This document shows, piece by piece, positions 1 to 5,718 of a DNA stretch of 5,718 bases (position 1 is its first letter; every line of letters begins with the position of its first letter). The DNA is taken from IMG/VR virus record IMGVR_UViG_3300045988_001066, positions 1 to 5,718 of that record. The stretch is one strand, 5' to 3'. Both the position numbers and the translations under genes were made by a program. The DNA is from a virus. The notes beneath the pieces are model-generated. The model made no database searches. It saw nothing but the letters and a program-made list of their open reading frames with translations, and was not told the origin of the DNA.

Positions 1-55
1 AGCGTTCTTGCAATTTCGGTTTTGCCTTCCGCCATCCATTCTTGAGACAGTGTTG
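1..55. repeat. Terminal direct repeat, copy 1 (identical to 5664..5718); signature of a circular genome assembled past its junction
   Basis: agcgttcttgcaatttcggttttgccttccgccatccattcttgagacagtgttg occurs at both window ends, 55/55 identical, offset 5663 nt. It lies inside the VP1 frame, which stays open across the join. Confidence 0.97.
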
Positions 56-1583
56 GTACGGCTTCGTAGTTGTCTGCATAGTGCCAGAAGTCCAGTGTGC
101 CTGTTGCATTACTTCTCATGAGGCCGCTTACGCGGTTTGGCTTCATTCTGTAATCAGCCCATGCCTCCTGGTAGCCGAACGTCTCTTCATCAGTTGCCGT
201 GCCGGTTAGCATGATTTCTTTTTTCTTTACAGGCTGCTCACCTAAGTTTGCGAATTGGGGCACATAGTAGTCCAGCCTGTCTTTTCTGCTCCAGAATCTT
301 TCAAGCCCCTGCTGGTACGTTCTGCTGTGGCGTACGCACAACACACCGATTACGAATCCGTGCTCCTCAAAGCTTTTCGTGAAGGAACTTTCGTTGATAG
401 GCGTTACGGACACTGCGCCGGTTTCGCCAATAGGCGTATCGTTTTCAGTCTGCTGCCCGCTTGTCTGTACAATTTGGTTCATTCCGACTCTGTAGCGTCC
501 ACCGCCGAGATATTCCGGAATCTGTACCGTTTTGTCGCTGATGGTTACATCCCACAGTGCCTGTACCTGTTCGCGGTAGCGGCTTCCGCCTCTTGCCATT
601 GCCTCATAGTACTGCTGCACTGCAATTGCGTTGCGTAGTTCGTTAATGGTTGTTGCTGTGACCGCTGCAAGGTCTGCGTATACATAGCCACTTCCGATTT
701 CTCCATTTTTTCTGTCTGTTCCATCGTACAATAATTGCTTTTTTCTGCTTACGGGATTAGTTGTGTAATTTAAACCTCCCGCTGCGTTTGACGCCTGTGT
801 TTCTCCTAAAACAAATTCCAGGGTACCATAGTCCATTTCATATCCGTGGGAACTTCTTAGTGCTACTGGTGCGTTTCCTGTCATTGGAATTGTGACTTCT
901 GGTCCGCGCTGCGGATAAGGCAGACAGCTTGAGAAGTAATCGTGAAAACGATTGACAGGAAGGCATTGGCCTCCCTTGTACGCTTCTTTGAGAATTGTTT
1001 CGATATCTGCATTTTTTCCGCTGTCGCTGTAGTTAACTTCATCATCATTTTTTACCAATGTTGCCGGGTTTTCTACGTTTTGATCTCTGAAATATTCGTT
1101 CCAGATCAAAACGTATGCTCTGATAGGCAATGCATTGATACTGGTTCTATTTTCGGGTGTCTTGATGCTTTTTGCTGGTATTCCCATATAGTCTAGTATC
1201 GATTCTTCGAATGGGATTTCCATGTTTTTTTCGTTTTCTAGTAAGATTTGTGGTACACTGTACGTTTTGCTTGGCATCCATGCTGTATTGTCTGCTTCTC
1301 CCATGAACGGTTTGAAGTTGTCCCACAGGATACGATTTGGACAATAGAAGTAGTAGAGGTCGAGGAATGCATCGTCCATCACCGGATACTTCGGTGTGGA
1401 CATGCGGATTATCGCGCTGGTGTCTATTTGGAATGTGTCTCCCGGCAGTACTTCGTCTACAAAGAACGGAATGAGCTTGCCGCTGTCGAACGTGGTTAGG
1501 ATTGTCTGGTCACGGTTGAATCGTGTTCTGCTTGTGTGCAATTGCGGTACGTTCAGAAAGTGTTTTTCGTTGTTTCTATTCAT
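1..1583 (-). CDS. VP1: Major capsid protein VP1 (phiX174 F-like capsid family), first 527 codons; continues over the circular junction into 5663..5561 (561 aa in total)
   Basis: Manual reverse-complement translation from ATG 1583..1581 has no stop down to base 1. It begins MNRNNEKHFLNVPQLHTSRTRFNRDQTILTTFDSGKLIPFFVDEVLPGDTF. Blocks I recognise as microvirus capsid hallmarks: LPIRAYVLIWNEYFRD, NRFHDYFSSCLPYPQRG, TINELRNAIAVQQYYEAMARGGSRY, EHGFVIGVLCVRH...YQQG, DYYVPQFANLGEQPV, FGYQEAWADYRMKPNRVSG. The ATG overlaps the VP3 stop (ATGA). Confidence 0.95.
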   Translation of the reverse strand, partial: MNRNNEKHFLNVPQLHTSRTRFNRDQTILTTFDSGKLIPFFVDEVLPGDTFQIDTSAIIRMSTPKYPVMDDAFLDLYYFYCPNRILWDNFKPFMGEADNTAWMPSKTYSVPQILLENEKNMEIPFEESILDYMGIPAKSIKTPENRTSINALPIRAYVLIWNEYFRDQNVENPATLVKNDDEVNYSDSGKNADIETILKEAYKGGQCLPVNRFHDYFSSCLPYPQRGPEVTIPMTGNAPVALRSSHGYEMDYGTLEFVLGETQASNAAGGLNYTTNPVSRKKQLLYDGTDRKNGEIGSGYVYADLAAVTATTINELRNAIAVQQYYEAMARGGSRYREQVQALWDVTISDKTVQIPEYLGGGRYRVGMNQIVQTSGQQTENDTPIGETGAVSVTPINESSFTKSFEEHGFVIGVLCVRHSRTYQQGLERFWSRKDRLDYYVPQFANLGEQPVKKKEIMLTGTATDEETFGYQEAWADYRMKPNRVSGLMRSNATGTLDFWHYADNYEAVPTLSQEWMAEGKTEIART

Positions 1584-1978
1584 TCTGCCGTTTCACTCCG
1601 TTCTTCTGATTTTTCTTCTTGTGCTTTGCTCTGTTCTTCCAGCTCTTTGAGCTTCATTGCGTTGGCTTGCGCCGTTGCAATCATCCGGTGGTATTCGTGA
1701 ATGTTCTGCGGCCATTCTGTCACGTCCATTTCTACGCCATCCATAGCGCCTTGCGACAGGTTTTTCAGGAATTCCGGGTCGAAACTTGCCTTCCGGACAA
1801 TGTTTTTGATGTCGCATTCGTCTGCGTAGCTTTCAATTTCCTGCTGGATGTCGATTGGTTCGGTCTCTTTCAGCTCTTCCTGGCCTTTTTCGTCCTTTGT
1901 CCAGACGTACTGTCTTCGTAGTTTTTCGCCTGAATTTGAAAAGAAGGGCTCTCGCCCTTCCTCGTATCGTTTATTCAT
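1580..1978 (-). CDS. VP3: Internal scaffolding protein VP3-like (132 aa)
   Basis: ATG 1978..1976 is preceded by GGGAGGG 8 nt upstream. The protein is acidic and helical (MNKRYEEGREPFF...KELEEQSKAQEEKSEERSETAE). It sits directly upstream of VP1 and is translationally coupled to it. Assignment rests on size, charge and position as in gokushoviruses rather than on a sharp motif. The track start at 2026 is a TTG inside the preceding ORF. Confidence 0.72.
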   Translation of the reverse strand: MNKRYEEGREPFFSNSGEKLRRQYVWTKDEKGQEELKETEPIDIQQEIESYADECDIKNIVRKASFDPEFLKNLSQGAMDGVEMDVTEWPQNIHEYHRMIATAQANAMKLKELEEQSKAQEEKSEERSETAE

Positions 1979-2210
1979 TCGGCTTGCCCTCCCACACTTT
2001 TTCCTTGTCGTTCGTGAACGTTCCAAGCTCGTCCTCGAACGTTGCCAGCTTGAAGCCGGTGTAGTCCTGCGGACTCTGCCCGATGAAGGTCGTCTTATCC
2101 TTTTCCATTACGTTGCACATGCGTGCAAAGGTTCCGTTGTTTTTGCTTTCGCCTACCCATGCGTAGCACTTTGCTACGTTGTCGTAGATGCCATAGTACA
2201 GATGTTCCAT
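1971..2210 (-). CDS. Small protein (79 aa), possibly the gokushovirus VP5-type nonstructural protein; function unknown
   Basis: The ATG at 2210 has AAAGGAAAG just upstream. The ORF fills the gap between the basic protein and VP3 exactly, and its stop overlaps the VP3 start (AATGAATAA). The N-terminus LYYGIYDNVAKCYAWVGESKNNGTFARMC recalls the xYDxxA....N...A.R motif I associate with small conserved microvirus proteins. That is recollection, not a search result. Confidence 0.6.
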   Translation of the reverse strand: MEHLYYGIYDNVAKCYAWVGESKNNGTFARMCNVMEKDKTTFIGQSPQDYTGFKLATFEDELGTFTNDKEKVWEGKPNE

Positions 2211-2226
2211 TGTTCTTTCCTTTCTC

Positions 2227-2349
2227 TTACAGCCGGATACCGCCGCGCATGGGCTTTTGGCTGAGGTTAATCGTTTTGGTCTTTCGTGCTGTCACGTTAA
2301 ACATTCGGCGGTCTTTTGTGCCGCTCATCTTCTTACGATGCTGTGCCAT
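2227..2349 (-). CDS. Small highly basic protein (40 aa), putative DNA-binding/packaging protein (phiX174 J / chlamydiaphage ORF8 analogue)
   Basis: Found by hand (below the track size cutoff). ATG 2349..2347 lies 7 nt after AAGGGAG. Sequence: MAQHRKKMSGTKDRRMFNVTARKTKTINLSQKPMRGGIRL, stop TAA 2229..2227. About a third of residues are K/R/H, there are no acidic residues except one D, and the C-terminus is RGGIRL. Confidence 0.7.
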   Translation of the reverse strand: MAQHRKKMSGTKDRRMFNVTARKTKTINLSQKPMRGGIRL

Positions 2350-2560
2350 TTTCGTACTCCCTTCTCATTAGTTCCATTTCGATTGCGTTTGCAAAACTTT
2401 TCATCTGCCAGATTTCATCCAGCAGTTTTTTTGCATCGTCGATACTTGAGACTTTTCTTAGCATTTTATAGTTGCCGTCAATCTCTTTGTATTTTCGATT
2501 GAGCAATTCTTCCAATGCGTCTGTGGTGCTGTCCCTGACGCTCCAACTTGTTCTTGTCAT
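2333..2560 (-). CDS. Hypothetical protein (75 aa), predicted helical, no TM segment
   Basis: The ATG at 2560 lies 5 nt after a consensus AAGGAG. It is packed 2 nt after the preceding ORF's stop and overlaps the next gene by 17 nt. There is no competing frame. Confidence 0.62.
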   Translation of the reverse strand: MTRTSWSVRDSTTDALEELLNRKYKEIDGNYKMLRKVSSIDDAKKLLDEIWQMKSFANAIEMELMRREYENGTAS

Positions 2561-2562
2561 TT

Positions 2563-2685
2563 TTACTCCTTTTCGTTTTCGTTGATGCTGTCATGCAGTG
2601 CATGATAGATTTCGTCAAGCTTTTCCAAGATCTGCATCATGAGACGAATTGCCTGCTTGACGTCCTTGATGGAAATAAGTGCCAT
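2563..2685 (-). CDS. Hypothetical small protein (40 aa), heptad-like amphipathic helix
   Basis: Found by hand. ATG 2685..2683 lies 6 nt after AAGGGGG and 1 nt after the M15 stop. Sequence: MALISIKDVKQAIRLMMQILEKLDEIYHALHDSINENEKE, TAA 2565..2563. It exactly fills the gap between two supported genes. Confidence 0.5.
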   Translation of the reverse strand: MALISIKDVKQAIRLMMQILEKLDEIYHALHDSINENEKE

Positions 2686-2686
2686 G

Positions 2687-3079
2687 TTATACCCCCTTTC
2701 TGTAGGCTTTTGTACGTGTGTCAATGTGTACCCATGTGTTGTACACGATAATGCCGCAGCTTTCCGGAATGATTTTGTTCAGTTTGTTGGCAATTTCTTT
2801 TGCGGTCATGCCTTTAATTTGGATGTCTGCTGCCATTCCTCTCATGTGGTATGAGTACTTCGCACCGCCTACTTCTTTATTCCTTGTCGGTGTTCTGTAT
2901 CCGCTGTTTATGTATACTGGCTTTCCGACTTGGTTTCTTAGGATGTCTAGAATAGATACTAGATAGTCATCGATGAATACGACTTGCGAACCATCTTTGC
3001 ACGCAAATTCTCGCACTTTAAAGTGCTGACCTATTTTTTCGTTTGCGTCTGTGTCCATGATATAACATCGGATAGCCAT
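2687..3079 (-). CDS. Zinc cell-wall peptidase, M15 family (Peptidase_M15_3 / VanY-like; 130 aa)
   Basis: Motifs: FKVREFACKDG, NSGYRTPTRNKEVGGAKYSYHMRGMAADI (SxHxxGxAxD) and WVHIDTR (HxD), the His/Asp/His zinc triad layout of M15 peptidases. I prefer the ATG at 3079, 6 nt after GAGAGGTG. The track's 3088 start is the GTG inside that SD. No signal peptide or TM segment. Confidence 0.9.
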   Translation of the reverse strand: MAIRCYIMDTDANEKIGQHFKVREFACKDGSQVVFIDDYLVSILDILRNQVGKPVYINSGYRTPTRNKEVGGAKYSYHMRGMAADIQIKGMTAKEIANKLNKIIPESCGIIVYNTWVHIDTRTKAYRKGV

Positions 3080-3103
3080 GTTGTTCACCTCTCTTCATTT
3101 CGT

Positions 3104-3132
3104 ATTTTACTTTTTTTTTAATCGCTTGTCAA
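3104..3132 (-). promoter_or_regulatory. Sigma70-type promoter driving the gene array (-35 TTGACA 3132..3127, 17-nt spacer, -10 TAAAAT 3109..3104)
   Basis: The minus strand reads attcaaaacaaaaaacagTTGACAagcgattaaaaaaaaagTAAAATacgaaatgaagagaggtgaacaacATG. The -35 is perfect, the spacer optimal and the -10 matches 5/6. An A-rich UP-like tract lies upstream and the first gene about 25 nt downstream. Confidence 0.72.
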
Positions 3133-3150
3133 CTGTTTTTTGTTTTGAAT

Positions 3151-3222
3151 GGCGCTTTAGCGCCTTGCCGTATGGAGCGCAGCGGAATGCGGCTTAATCC
3201 ATTCCTTTTTAGCGCTGTGCGC
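3151..3222. other. Cluster of short GC-rich inverted repeats upstream of the promoter
   Basis: GGCGC-ttta-GCGCC (3151..3164). GGAATG-10 nt-CATTCC (3184..3205) followed by TTTTT on the plus strand. Flanking GCGCAGC (3177..3183) / GCTGtgCGC (3214..3222) can pair with a 2-nt bulge. Confidence 0.4.
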
Positions 3223-3272
3223 GTTTATGCCGCTTTATTATATAACTTGTTGTAGGAGTAGTAGTAGGTACT

Positions 3273-3445
3273 GTTGAAAAGTTGAAAGTAGTAAAAATTA
3301 CTCGTTATCACGTGATAATTAAGAAATATTATCAGTTGAAAAAATTGTTGAAAAATTGTTGAAATGTTGAATGTTCGTCATTATGACTAATTTTATTGTG
3401 CACTTTTATGTTGAAAACCTGTTGAAAGTGTTGAAACTGTTGAAA
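3273..3445 (+). repeat. Iteron-like array: ten direct copies of GTTGAA(A/T), mostly TGTTGAAA, in three clusters
   Basis: Copies start at 3273 and 3281; at 3335, 3347, 3358 and 3366 (the last is GTTGAAT); and at 3410, 3421, 3430 and 3439. All are in one orientation, with spacing of 8 to 12 nt within clusters. Each copy ends in an A-tract. Confidence 0.9.
3305..3334. promoter_or_regulatory. Operator-like palindromes built from TGATAA(T) half-sites
   Basis: TTATCAcgTGATAA is a perfect 14-bp palindrome (3305..3318). It shares its right half with TGATAAT-8 nt-ATTATCA (3313..3334). The site lies between iteron clusters 1 and 2. Confidence 0.45.
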
Positions 3446-3452
3446 ACTAATT

Positions 3453-3499
3453 TACGCGCATGTGCGCGTGCGCGTTTCGCGCGCGTGCGCATGTGCGTA
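3453..3499. repeat. Imperfect 22-bp palindrome made of strictly alternating purine-pyrimidine sequence (cruciform / Z-DNA-prone / RNA hairpin)
   Basis: taCGCGCATGTGCGCGTGCGCG-ttt-CGCGCGCGTGCGCATGTGCGta. Pairing i+j=6952 gives 18 Watson-Crick pairs plus 4 G.T pairs (3458/3494, 3463/3489, 3466/3486, 3469/3483) on the plus strand. Purines and pyrimidines alternate without a break over 3453..3475 and 3478..3500. Confidence 0.85.
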
Positions 3500-3508
3500 C
3501 TAGCGGCA

Positions 3509-3524
3509 GCCCCATGATTGGGGC
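3509..3524. other. Small hairpin GCCCCA-tgat-TGGGGC
   Basis: A 6-bp inverted repeat with a 4-nt loop, between the GC palindrome and the plus-strand terminator. Confidence 0.35.
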
Positions 3525-3531
3525 GCGACGC

Positions 3532-3565
3532 AAGGGGTTGACTTTTAAGTCAACCCCTTTTATTT
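3532..3565 (+). terminator. Intrinsic (rho-independent) terminator oriented on the plus strand, antisense to all genes
   Basis: AAGGGGTTGACTT-tt-AAGTCAACCCCTT is a perfect inverted repeat (3532..3559). On the plus strand it runs straight into TTTTATTT. On the minus strand the same stem is followed by GCGTCGCG, with no U-tract. Both arms carry the GTTGA core of the iterons. Confidence 0.6.
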
Positions 3566-3602
3566 ACTGACTAGGCTGATACATGGAGTCTTTAAACTAT
3601 TA

Positions 3603-3636
3603 TAGCCCAGTACCTTACTTGATAGGTACTGGGCTA
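3603..3636 (-). terminator. 13-bp perfect hairpin 10 nt after the VP4 stop: candidate VP4 terminator and/or replication-origin hairpin
   Basis: tAGCCCAGTACCT-tacttgat-AGGTACTGGGCTa. On the minus strand it is followed by an A/T-rich but only weakly U-rich tail (TAATAGTTTAAAG). Confidence 0.45.
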
Positions 3637-3646
3637 GGTGACACCG

Positions 3647-4666
3647 TTAGAGTGTCCCACTCTTCTTCATTTGCTTTTTGATCACTCTTTCTTTTGTCTT
3701 GCATTGTTCTGCAAAGTCTGTATTTTCATATTTTAGCCGGTTTTCTGCTATGGCTGCTGCCTGTCTGCTTTGTTTAATTCTCCACAATCTTTGTGGGTTT
3801 TCGGCTTCCATCATTTTTTCATAATAACGTGGAATTTGCGCTTTCTTTCCGTTTGTACATTGGATGTATCCTTGTCTCCATATTTCTTCTTTGTGTTCTT
3901 GGTAATAGTGGTCTCCTAGTCCGGGTTTTAAGCTCATGCACGCGAATGGCTTTTGTTGACCTAACTCGTAGTATTGGTTTGCTTTCTTTCCGTCTATCTC
4001 GTACATTTTTTTTGTTACGTATCCTGCAACATATCTATATGTCTCTGGTACTGCTTGTGCTATCTGTATTTGACCCATGCCCCATAGGTCTGCTAGCCAT
4101 TGGCTTGTGAAGTATCCGTTGTGCTGTATCTTGTACAGGTGTTTCAGGTCTGTTGGTTGCCATCCATATAGTATCATGTGGTAATGTGGCCTTGCTGTCT
4201 GTTCTCCATACTCTCCTGCCACAAAATAGCGTAATTTGCCCCTGTAAGCCTTCCTAAGGCGTTTTAGAAATTTTTGAATGTCAGTATACAGTAATGTTTG
4301 TACGCTCTCAGGAGTCTTCTTTCCTGGCTTCCAGACGTATTGCACTTTCCTCATGATTTCGCCTGTGTTTATGATCATTCCTGGTACATGGTTATCATCG
4401 TATGTTAGCGTGATAAACCATACTTCTTCTTTGGGATAATCTCGTGCTTCTAATTCTATTCGTGTTGTCCAGTCTTCTCTTTGTCTTATTCTGCATCCGA
4501 TGCACTGCCCGCATGGTATTAACATGGCATCTTTTCTGTACATCAAATCTTCATATTTTAGCTGTTTTCCCGCTAACTGAGAAAAGCGGGAGAGTGAATA
4601 CACCCTCCCGCTAATGTCTTTGTCGTTAGGGTTGTACAGCCTTATTAATGGCTTGTAACAACTCAT
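3647..4666 (-). CDS. VP4: Rolling-circle replication initiation protein VP4 (HUH endonuclease superfamily, 339 aa)
   Basis: N-terminal cysteine cluster PCGQCIGCRIRQ, motif 1 FITLTYD, motif 2 ARPHYHMILYG, catalytic-Tyr motif 3 YVAGYVTKK. The ATG overlaps the VP2 stop (ATGA at 4666..4663). Confidence 0.95.
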   Translation of the reverse strand: MSCYKPLIRLYNPNDKDISGRVYSLSRFSQLAGKQLKYEDLMYRKDAMLIPCGQCIGCRIRQREDWTTRIELEARDYPKEEVWFITLTYDDNHVPGMIINTGEIMRKVQYVWKPGKKTPESVQTLLYTDIQKFLKRLRKAYRGKLRYFVAGEYGEQTARPHYHMILYGWQPTDLKHLYKIQHNGYFTSQWLADLWGMGQIQIAQAVPETYRYVAGYVTKKMYEIDGKKANQYYELGQQKPFACMSLKPGLGDHYYQEHKEEIWRQGYIQCTNGKKAQIPRYYEKMMEAENPQRLWRIKQSRQAAAIAENRLKYENTDFAEQCKTKERVIKKQMKKSGTL

Positions 4667-5520
4667 CTTAGGTAATCACCCGGCTTTCTTTTTTCCCCGT
4701 AGGATCCTGTTTTGTTCTGTGGTGCTTGATAGTTGCTTTTTCTGTCGTTCTTTTTTGGTACGTTTTTGTCAATCGCTTTGCTTGTGTCGTCTCCGATTTT
4801 TGTTAGTGCTTTTTGTAACCCGTATGGGCTCATGTGTGTGCTGCTGAGCATTTGCTGCCAGCTTTGTGCTGCATTGTACCAGTCACTTTTGCTCCAACTT
4901 GTGCTTTCATATGCGTTAGGCACAAATCCTCCGCTTCGGCTTACTCCTAGTGCACTGCTGCTTGCAAGTCCCATGCTTGCCCCGCTGATCGTTCCCGCGC
5001 TTCCGCCCGGTGTGCTTGCTCCACCGTTTGAGAATGCTAGAATCGGGTTAAGCCCCGCTTTTTTCATATCTTCTACGGCTCTTTGATATGCTGTGCTGCT
5101 CATGTGCTCTTGCCATTCACGGTTTGCTTGTGCTTCTGCGCTGTTGTAGTTCATTGCTACGCTGTTCTCGATGTGGTTGTATACGCCTTGCATGATTGCT
5201 TGTAGCGTGTTATAACCCATCTGTTTAAGCATACTTTGACTGTTGTATTTGCCCTGCATGGCTGCTTCTTGCCCTTGGTATGCGTATGCCTGCTTGAGCC
5301 AGTCATTGACCTGTTGCACGTTGGTGCCTGATTGGCTTCCGCTTTCGGAGTGTCCACCGCCTTCTTGTGTGCTTCCTCCGCTGCTTTGGCTGTTGCCTGT
5401 CTGTCCCCATCCGCCTAATGCTCCTGCGATTTGCTTTCCAGCATTCGCAAATGTTCCAACTGTGTTTGCAACGTTTCCGGCTATGTTGAGCGCTGTTAAC
5501 AGTCCTGATAATCCTGCCAT
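4663..5520 (-). CDS. VP2: DNA pilot / minor capsid protein VP2 (285 aa)
   Basis: The N-terminal third is Gly/Ser/Ala-rich (MAGLSGLLTALNIAGNVANTVG...GGSTQEGGGHSESGSQSG). The conserved-looking core is SSTAYQRAVEDMKKAGLNPILAF, which I recognise from gokushovirus VP2 proteins. The gene sits directly downstream of VP1. Confidence 0.88.
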   Translation of the reverse strand: MAGLSGLLTALNIAGNVANTVGTFANAGKQIAGALGGWGQTGNSQSSGGSTQEGGGHSESGSQSGTNVQQVNDWLKQAYAYQGQEAAMQGKYNSQSMLKQMGYNTLQAIMQGVYNHIENSVAMNYNSAEAQANREWQEHMSSTAYQRAVEDMKKAGLNPILAFSNGGASTPGGSAGTISGASMGLASSSALGVSRSGGFVPNAYESTSWSKSDWYNAAQSWQQMLSSTHMSPYGLQKALTKIGDDTSKAIDKNVPKKNDRKSNYQAPQNKTGSYGEKRKPGDYLR

Positions 5521-5522
5521 TT

Positions 5523-5550
5523 AAAAAATAGCCCGGGTTTTGCCCGGGCT
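5523..5550 (-). terminator. Intrinsic terminator/attenuator hairpin between VP1 and VP2
   Basis: The minus strand reads AGCCCGGG-caaaa-CCCGGGCT (5550..5530) followed by ATTTTTT (5529..5523). The hairpin starts 10 nt after the VP1 stop. Confidence 0.7.
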
Positions 5551-5551
5551 T

Positions 5552-5558
5552 CCTCCTT
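5552..5558 (-). promoter_or_regulatory. Consensus Shine-Dalgarno AAGGAGG separated from the VP2 ATG by the terminator hairpin
   Basis: The minus strand reads TAAgaAAGGAGGa[hairpin]attttttaaATG. The SD is 31 nt from the ATG in linear sequence and about 10 nt if the 21-nt hairpin is closed. Confidence 0.5.
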
Positions 5559-5560
5559 TC

Positions 5561-5718
5561 TTACAGTTTGTACAAGCCCGGTACACTGTACAAGGGCATA
5601 CAACGTGTGGTCTTGTTTGCTACGCGGATTGCGCCAAAGAATTGGTCTTCTTTCTGTTCAATGAGCGTTCTTGCAATTTCGGTTTTGCCTTCCGCCATCC
5701 ATTCTTGAGACAGTGTTG
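5561..5718 (-). CDS. VP1: Major capsid protein VP1, C-terminal end (unique part 5561..5663; 5664..5718 duplicates 1..55)
   Basis: The frame carried over from base 1 reads ...TLSQEWMAEGKTEIARTLIEQKEDQFFGAIRVANKTTRCMPLYSVPGLYKL then TAA at 5563..5561. 1583 + 103 nt = 1686 nt = 561 codons plus stop. Confidence 0.93.
   Translation of the reverse strand, partial: TLSQEWMAEGKTEIARTLIEQKEDQFFGAIRVANKTTRCMPLYSVPGLYKL
5664..5718. repeat. Terminal direct repeat, copy 2 (identical to 1..55)
   Basis: Same 55-mer as 1..55; see copy 1. Confidence 0.97.

Follow-up and report, generated by a model that had tools for sequence, protein, structure and literature searches.

A core M15A-type peptidase without a recognizable holin partner as the probable lysis enzyme of a gokushovirus clade

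Microviruses with peptidases that could act on the cell wall have been known since 2012, when Roux et al. (PMC3394797) found M15_3 peptidases in 11 human-associated genomes of these phages, five of them from gokushoviruses. The five gokushovirus enzymes grouped with Faecalibacterium sequences, and the authors argued for horizontal acquisition, proposed an endolysin role and speculated on a Firmicutes-like host. Peptidases were later identified as the usual lysis-associated accessory genes of microviruses, with a peptidase region that has recombined between distant members (Kirchberger et al., 2022; PMC9239249), and M15 metallopeptidases were found in most Occultatumvirinae (Zhang et al., 2024; PMC11499846); both studies again proposed an endolysin role. 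A peptidoglycan hydrolase outside the M15 family, Gp7 of the microvirus Ebor, was verified biochemically and occurs in traces in the virion; its authors call it the first experimentally verified such enzyme of a single-stranded DNA (ssDNA) phage (Ebor study, 2025; PMC11980548). Here we analyse the peptidase gene at positions 2687–3079 (minus strand) of the IMG/VR virus record IMGVR_UViG_3300045988_001066 (positions 1–5718; this whole stretch of 5,718 nt is called the window).

The gene is a further member of the family known from these studies and in itself adds nothing new; what it illustrates is the question of how gokushoviruses, which are abundant in the human gut, lyse their hosts. A preliminary description of the window had offered three roles for the protein, namely an endolysin released by a non-holin route, a virion-delivered entry enzyme or a wall-remodelling factor. 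All three still stand, and the evidence favours the lysis enzyme: the protein is probably the endolysin of the phage, a LAS-type M15A zinc peptidase that would cut the peptides of peptidoglycan.

Family, fold and active site of the peptidase

The open reading frame (ORF) runs on the minus strand from an ATG at 3079–3077 to a stop at 2689–2687 (130 codons) and is preceded by the Shine–Dalgarno sequence GAGAGGTGA (3093–3085, minus strand), 6 nt 5′ of the ATG. The 133-residue form with a GTG start given by the ORF tool begins within this Shine–Dalgarno sequence. Pfam Peptidase_M15_3 (PF08291) matches the protein with 81.9 bits against a cut-off of 23.2 (E = 4.5e-23) over model positions 2–108 of 108, and PHROG 894 ('endolysin') matches it with E = 6e-43. 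The NCBIfam match to MepK is sub-threshold (45 bits versus a cut-off of 185) and the protein is therefore not a MepK equivalog.

In an alignment of 49 sequences that are 39–90% identical to the window peptidase, F20, E24, F25, C27, D29, R62, T63, N67, H78, D85, W116, H118, D120 and R122 are invariant. This set includes the predicted metal ligands: H78 and D85, which form an H-x6-D motif, and H118, which is part of the WVHID motif. The only solved structure related by sequence is the zinc D-Ala-D-Ala carboxypeptidase of Streptomyces albus G (PDB entry 1LBU), whose H154 and D161 align with H78 and D85. A first AlphaFold model, calculated from close homologues only, had a predicted local distance difference test score (pLDDT) of 70, matched Hedgehog N-terminal domains at a TM-score of 0.47 and was replaced. 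The second model, calculated from a more diverse alignment, has a pLDDT of 80.6 and a predicted template modelling score (pTM) of 0.76. Its top PDB match in Foldseek is 1LBU (probability 1.00, root mean square deviation 2.6 Å, 28% identity over 95 columns), followed by Hedgehog N-terminal domains and then by LysECD7, VanXYc, MepA, ChiX and VanY; LdcB and the endolysins of T5 and RB49 are also among the matches. Predicted viral M15 peptidases (BFVD) match it at a TM-score of 0.85. The model thus predicts the Hedgehog/DD-peptidase (LAS) fold, and the profile match and the putative zinc-ligand motif are both those of Peptidase_M15_3. The preliminary description had named an M15 zinc peptidase with the triad H78, D85 and H118 and had proposed structure prediction as a check; profile search and second model agree with it on the family, and the alignment agrees with it on the triad positions. 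The ratio of non-synonymous to synonymous substitution rates (dN/dS) of the gene is ∼ 0.21, close to that of VP3 and VP1, and purifying selection acts on it.

Expression, export and the search for a membrane partner

The window begins and ends with the same 55 bases (1–55 = 5664–5718, a direct repeat) and is therefore a complete circular genome of 5,663 nt. Every gene lies on the minus strand. The genes were assigned with Pfam and PHROG (Phage_ORF5, Chlamy_scaf, REP domain, pilot protein, PHROG 10695), and their order is that of a gokushovirus. Its features are as follows.

Across the window ends (the circle junction), minus strand: VP1, 561 aa
5530–5550, minus strand: intrinsic-terminator-like hairpin and T-run, just past the VP1 stop
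4663–5520, minus strand: VP2 (pilot protein)
3647–4666, minus strand: VP4
3089–3646: intergenic region between VP4 and the peptidase gene, 558 nt
2687–3079, minus strand: predicted M15_3 (M15A-type) zinc peptidoglycan peptidase, 130 aa, 14.8 kDa, pI 9.4
2563–2685, minus strand: 40-aa peptide, acidic, helical
2333–2560, minus strand: orf75, 75-aa protein, hydrophilic, helical, downstream in the peptidase transcript
2227–2349, minus strand: arginine-rich protein, 40 aa, pI 12, PHROG 10695 at E = 3e-11
1971–2210, minus strand: VP5
1580–2026, minus strand: VP3

A sigma-70-type sequence, TTGACA-17 nt-TAAAAT (3132–3104, minus strand), agrees with the consensus at 11 of 12 positions, more than any other site in the window, and its -10 element ends 24 nt ahead of the peptidase ATG. 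Of 77 relatives, 38 have a site upstream of the ATG that matches at least 10 of the 12 positions, in most cases at a similar distance from it, and in five of these the match extends to all 12. At the other end, the hairpin at 5550–5530 (8-bp stem with seven G–C pairs, then ATTTTTT) is likely to mark the end of an operon that extends from the peptidase gene to VP1. Both calls are matches to consensus or sequence pattern and are thus predictions. The predicted main transcript carries the peptidase gene, the small genes, VP5, VP3 and VP1 in this order, so the peptidase would be co-expressed with the capsid proteins. Strong Shine–Dalgarno sequences also precede the genes for the 40-aa peptide, orf75, the arginine-rich protein, VP5, VP1 and VP4. 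The preliminary description had put the peptidase gene first behind the only strong promoter and had called this place odd for a lysis enzyme. The promoter-proximal position is borne out, but we do not find it odd. Microviruses are not known to switch transcription from early to late genes, and an endolysin does no damage in the cytoplasm as long as it is not released. As the same transcript is also predicted to carry the capsid genes, the position is not anomalous.

Membrane-associated segments were sought as transmembrane (TM)-like stretches, defined by a Kyte–Doolittle mean of at least 1.6 over a 19-residue window, in ORFs of at least 25 aa with canonical starts. The peptidase reaches a maximum of 1.07 (residues 33–51 of the 130-aa protein, 36–54 of the 133-aa ORF), its N-terminus (MAIRCYIMDTDANEKIGQ) is charged, and sequence inspection and the Kyte–Doolittle scan revealed no signal peptide, signal-anchor-release (SAR) domain or TM segment. 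An in-frame 5′ extension is not possible because the ORF opens just three codons before the ATG. The ORFs neighbouring the peptidase gene do not exceed 0.92, and the coding strands of 81 related genomes have no conserved ORF with a TM-like stretch, either beside the peptidase gene, as in a holin–endolysin cassette, or elsewhere. The lack of an export signal and of a holin partner noted for the window in the preliminary description is therefore borne out, the latter clade-wide. Its further remark that no hydrophobic helix is encoded nearby applies to the neighbouring ORFs but is less clear for the ORFs embedded in other genes, because a 55-aa ORF inside VP1 (881–1048) has a borderline value of 1.74 and is the one ORF on the coding strand of the window to pass the threshold. 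This ORF was considered as a lysis gene of the phiX174 E type and rejected: it is kept in only three of the 81 genomes and most likely arose by chance.

Two other candidates were also discarded. An antisense ORF within the peptidase gene (2718–2966, plus strand, 82 aa) has a Kyte–Doolittle value of 2.30 and might have been a hidden holin. The non-coding strand is T-rich, however, so that plus-strand ORFs all look hydrophobic, and across 109 genomes the antisense open stretches do not exceed those of synonymous-codon shuffles in length (the observed length is attained by a median fraction of 0.41–0.57 of the shuffles). The stretch in the window is mildly unusual if taken alone, since 2 of 100 shuffles reach its length in one of the three frames. 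No promoter-like site was found on the plus strand on the side that would serve this ORF. The second candidate was the 40-aa peptide, whose gene (2563–2685; MALISIKDVKQAI..., MALISIKDVKQAIRLMMQILEKLDEIYHALHD...) starts 1 nt past the peptidase stop and has its own Shine–Dalgarno sequence, AAGGGGG, an arrangement that would suit a translationally coupled chaperone or partner specific to the peptidase. The peptide is encoded at all 81 loci selected by M15 and in all 69 complete-size genomes selected by VP1 (dN/dS 0.13), but it is also present in a gokushovirus clade that lacks M15 and whose VP1 is ∼ 46% identical. It has no family match, is unannotated in nearly all GenBank records and probably represents a small core protein of gokushoviruses that has been missed in annotation.

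With neither an export signal nor a membrane partner in ∼ 110 genomes, one could imagine that the peptidase needs no exit at all. It would cleave the stem peptide of UDP-MurNAc-pentapeptide or lipid II in the cytoplasm and starve transpeptidation, and would thus be the enzymatic counterpart of phiX174 E, Qbeta A2 and other single-gene lysis proteins. Several observations fit such a holin-free lysis. The structure 1LBU, related by sequence and fold, was named muramoyl-pentapeptide carboxypeptidase by its depositors; VanXYc and VanY, which are among the fold matches, act on precursors; E. coli ldcA mutants lyse as tetrapeptide precursors accumulate; and the microviral enzymes are missing a seven-residue loop next to the WVH motif. 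The loop deletion is no evidence of a changed substrate, however, and the tailed-phage homologues, 44–46% identical, adjoin holins, which implies that they build up in the cytoplasm without harm before the holin acts. We consider precursor cleavage distinctly unlikely.

The remaining hydrophobic feature is the N-terminus of the pilot protein. The N-terminal 40 residues of VP2 (MAGLSGLLTALNIAGNVANTVGTFANAGKQIAGALGGWG) are Gly/Ala-rich and moderately hydrophobic with small-xxx-small spacing. In six related genomes that were checked (five without M15, one with it) this segment is the most hydrophobic on the coding strand, with values of 1.36–1.57; in the window it reaches 1.10 and is second to the non-conserved 55-aa ORF inside VP1. 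The phiX174 pilot protein H forms a membrane-spanning tube, and VP2 might similarly act as a de facto holin late in infection and release the peptidase. The Kyte–Doolittle values are below the usual TM threshold of 1.6, and VP2 lies downstream of the terminator-like site and is thus probably made at a lower level; we regard this role of VP2 as doubtful. The broader proposition that the clade lyses with an endolysin-type enzyme and no dedicated permeabilizer, be it by precursor cleavage or with VP2 as the holin, seems to us rather unlikely. If it were true, enzyme-only or VP2-holin lysis would be a strategy not described for any phage, and it would also imply a gokushovirus that grows on a Firmicutes-type host. 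We know of no gokushovirus isolated from such a host, and of no cultured member of this group of gut phages.

Distribution, origin and probable role

In IMG/VR the peptidase has 142 relatives, of which the 80 examined are 68–95% identical and lie nearly all on contigs of 5.5–6.1 kb. The gene order VP4-M15-peptide-orf75-Arg-rich-VP5-VP3-VP1-VP2 is dominant (53 of 81 loci). A collection of 5.8 billion proteins holds more than 1,300 homologues at E < 1e-5; the best 120 of these are all at least 82% identical and many are encoded on contigs of ∼ 5.7 kb. The preliminary description had suggested a survey of the same VP1 clade. When complete-size genomes were picked by VP1 similarity (69–83% identity), the peptidase was present in 69 of 69, and it is thus a core gene, fixed in this VP1 clade. 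M15 genes had been called sporadic in Microviridae, a view at odds with this count, with the section on these peptidases in PMC3394797, with PMC9239249 and with the 'peptidase M15' labels of GenBank relatives that are 60–86% identical. More distant gut gokushoviruses (KT264798, KT264799, MG945135, MG945157 and MG945391), whose VP1 is ∼ 46% identical, have no peptidase. This sister group keeps the 40-aa peptide, the arginine-rich protein, VP5 and VP3, and our scan detected no TM ORF in it.

The existence of these sisters, which manage without the gene, would be compatible with a role outside lysis, for example in wall remodelling or superinfection exclusion, or with a passenger gene in decay. 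Its fixation in all 69 genomes of the clade, the dN/dS of 0.21 with invariant catalytic residues and the strong promoter and Shine–Dalgarno sequence make such readings very improbable, and a 5.7-kb genome is unlikely to retain a useless gene of 393 nt.

Within the clade, pairwise M15 identities show only a weak correlation with those of VP1, VP2 and VP4 (Spearman rho 0.12–0.23), and those of the core genes correlate with each other at rho of 0.65–0.71, in a sample chosen by similarity to the window. The weak correlation suggests that the peptidase module has been exchanged by recombination among related phages. The nearest relatives outside the microviruses are single-domain endolysins of ∼ 137 aa from Faecalibacterium phages and related gut prophages. 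The endolysin gene of FP_Toutatis (AUV56799.1, 137 aa, 45.7% identity) is directly followed by genes for two TM proteins with Kyte–Doolittle values of 2.59 and 1.91. In two prophage contexts the homologue comes after tail genes, and a Holin_SPP1 family protein is encoded two genes downstream. At the level of sequence, these comparisons show that the peptidase descends from, or shares an origin with, the endolysins of tailed phages and prophages of gut Firmicutes. Since the homologues there adjoin holin-like proteins, the microvirus lineage holds the enzyme without its holin.

The same contexts bear on a role in entry, in which a few packaged copies would open the wall locally during DNA delivery. 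Some large virion-associated (tail or baseplate) proteins of tailed phages contain M15A domains, Ebor virions contain Gp7 (PMC11980548), and the peptidase gene is predicted to share a transcript with structural genes. On the other hand, the closest non-microviral relatives are free-standing in lysis cassettes and not part of structural modules, the peptidase is itself a free-standing protein of 130 aa that is not fused to a structural protein, the sister clade enters cells with similar VP1 and VP2 and no peptidase, and the amount of Gp7 in the Ebor virion is only a trace. An entry enzyme is, in our judgement, quite improbable.

We therefore return to the lysis enzyme. The peptidase would accumulate in the cytoplasm alongside the capsid proteins and would degrade the wall once the membrane has been breached by a factor that is not recognizable from sequence. 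Because the peptidase-less sisters still must lyse their hosts, this factor is probably common to both groups of gokushoviruses; a small non-TM protein, the Gly/Ala-rich hydrophobic N-terminus of VP2 or a host function may be considered. The peptidase would then be an acquired booster or finisher of lysis and not a self-sufficient lysis system. Several points weigh against a lysis role. In the literature searched we found neither a biochemical study of an M15 enzyme from a microvirus nor an account of how one leaves the cytoplasm; the statement in the preliminary description that none has been characterized is roughly fair for these enzymes, although Gp7, of another family, was verified in 2025 (PMC11980548). 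No route across the membrane can be named for the peptidase, and the Kyte–Doolittle scan as defined could miss an atypical membrane-active peptide. Since the sister gokushoviruses lack the gene, lysis in the wider group does not strictly depend on it, and the M15A domains in virion proteins of tailed phages mean that family membership alone does not imply lysis. The clade is nevertheless a clean test case, because the endolysin is fixed, the holin is stripped and a closely organized sister clade has no endolysin.

The strong Shine–Dalgarno sequences, the promoter of the TTGACA/TATAAT type and the ancestry of the peptidase gene together indicate a Firmicutes-like host. We infer the host from these indirect signs only, but gene origin and the style of promoter and Shine–Dalgarno sequences do provide a concrete lead, towards Faecalibacterium-like Firmicutes. 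A search for the host in a genome collection gave a sole match of 40% identity, in a metagenome-assembled genome of Bacteriovoracaceae, and was uninformative. The nearest GenBank records are human and pig gut gokushoviruses with 76–82% DNA identity over at most 74% of the window; the best of these matches is 82% identical and covers 74%.

Among the smaller genes of the operon, that for the arginine-rich 40-aa protein is present in all 69 genomes selected by VP1, and its product is probably a DNA-condensing protein. The gene orf75 is present in 65 of these genomes (dN/dS 0.20) and has no Pfam or PHROG match. Two related contigs are unusually large. The first (IMGVR_UViG_3300045988_005607, 6683 nt; locus L032) has an extra ORF of 603 aa (96–1907) that is absent from the other genomes. 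The second (IMGVR_UViG_3300045988_086966, 8781 nt; loci L042 and L088) carries microvirus genes and ∼ 3 kb of extra sequence with several hydrophobic ORFs; this 8.8-kb contig could be an assembly chimera or represent an integrated or concatenated form.

The intergenic region upstream of the peptidase gene has features of its own. TTCAAC occurs ten times on the coding strand within 172 nt (3273–3444) and once elsewhere in the window, and none of 200 shuffles reaches 11 copies. The coding strand of 84 of 107 related genomes instead carries the array as GTTGAA. The array segment of ∼ 212 nt (3236–3447) is inverted in the window and in two relatives (L008, L053) with respect to five others (L001, L002, L006, L060, L070); its flanks stay collinear (84–94% identity), and GC-rich repeats of the ACGCGC/GCGCGT type bound it. 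The array might be an origin of the iteron type, or a regulatory array, whose orientation is polymorphic. GC-rich palindromes and hairpins lie at 3448–3565, including a 12-bp stem at 3532–3559, and at 3150–3165; examples are the GCGCACGCGCGC...GCGCGT cluster at ∼ 3450–3500 and GGCGCTAAAGCGCC at ∼ 3150–3165. They are candidate ssDNA structures for priming of the complementary strand, or candidate terminators. An Rfam scan of the window gave no significant match. Positions 3139–3436 stay 84–88% identical in GenBank genomes that are otherwise divergent.

Comparison with known systems

The phiX174 E protein is a membrane protein encoded by an overprinted gene; it inhibits MraY and does not attack the wall enzymatically. 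It resembles the present case in that a microvirus lyses its host without a holin–endolysin pair, and differs in that the clade of the window has no conserved, embedded TM ORF of the E type. Ebor Gp7 is, like the window peptidase, an accessory wall hydrolase of a microvirus. Its HHpred match is 6SSC and it is thus not an M15 enzyme, it belongs to the 'Tainavirinae' lineage with an alphaproteobacterial host, and Ebor also encodes a predicted membrane protein of 45 aa, Gp1.

The carboxypeptidase 1LBU, which we take to be a member of MEROPS M15A, shares the catalytic fold, the H-x6-D motif and a conserved arginine and asparagine with the window peptidase. In contrast to the latter it is a secreted, bacterial protein of 213 aa that has an additional domain at its N-terminus. 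The endolysins of Faecalibacterium phages (FP_Toutatis, Lelie) and of gut prophages are closer: they are single-domain proteins of ∼ 135 aa, 44–46% identical over the full length, and keep the residues that are invariant in the window peptidase. They differ in two respects. The tailed-phage homologues have holin-like TM neighbours, Holin_SPP1 among them, whereas the microvirus has none, and they possess the seven-residue loop before the WVH motif that the microviral enzymes lack.

The closest counterparts are the M15_3 genes of gut Gokushovirinae (KX513876, with ARQ16041.1 labelled 'peptidase M15', KX513868 and KX513877). They are of the same family and size, occupy the same position between VP4 and VP5 and encode proteins 60–89% identical to the window peptidase, with the affinity to Faecalibacterium common to both; the GenBank relatives of the MG945xxx series carry the label 'similar to peptidase'. 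There is no essential difference between these genes and that of the window, which is another member of the clade.

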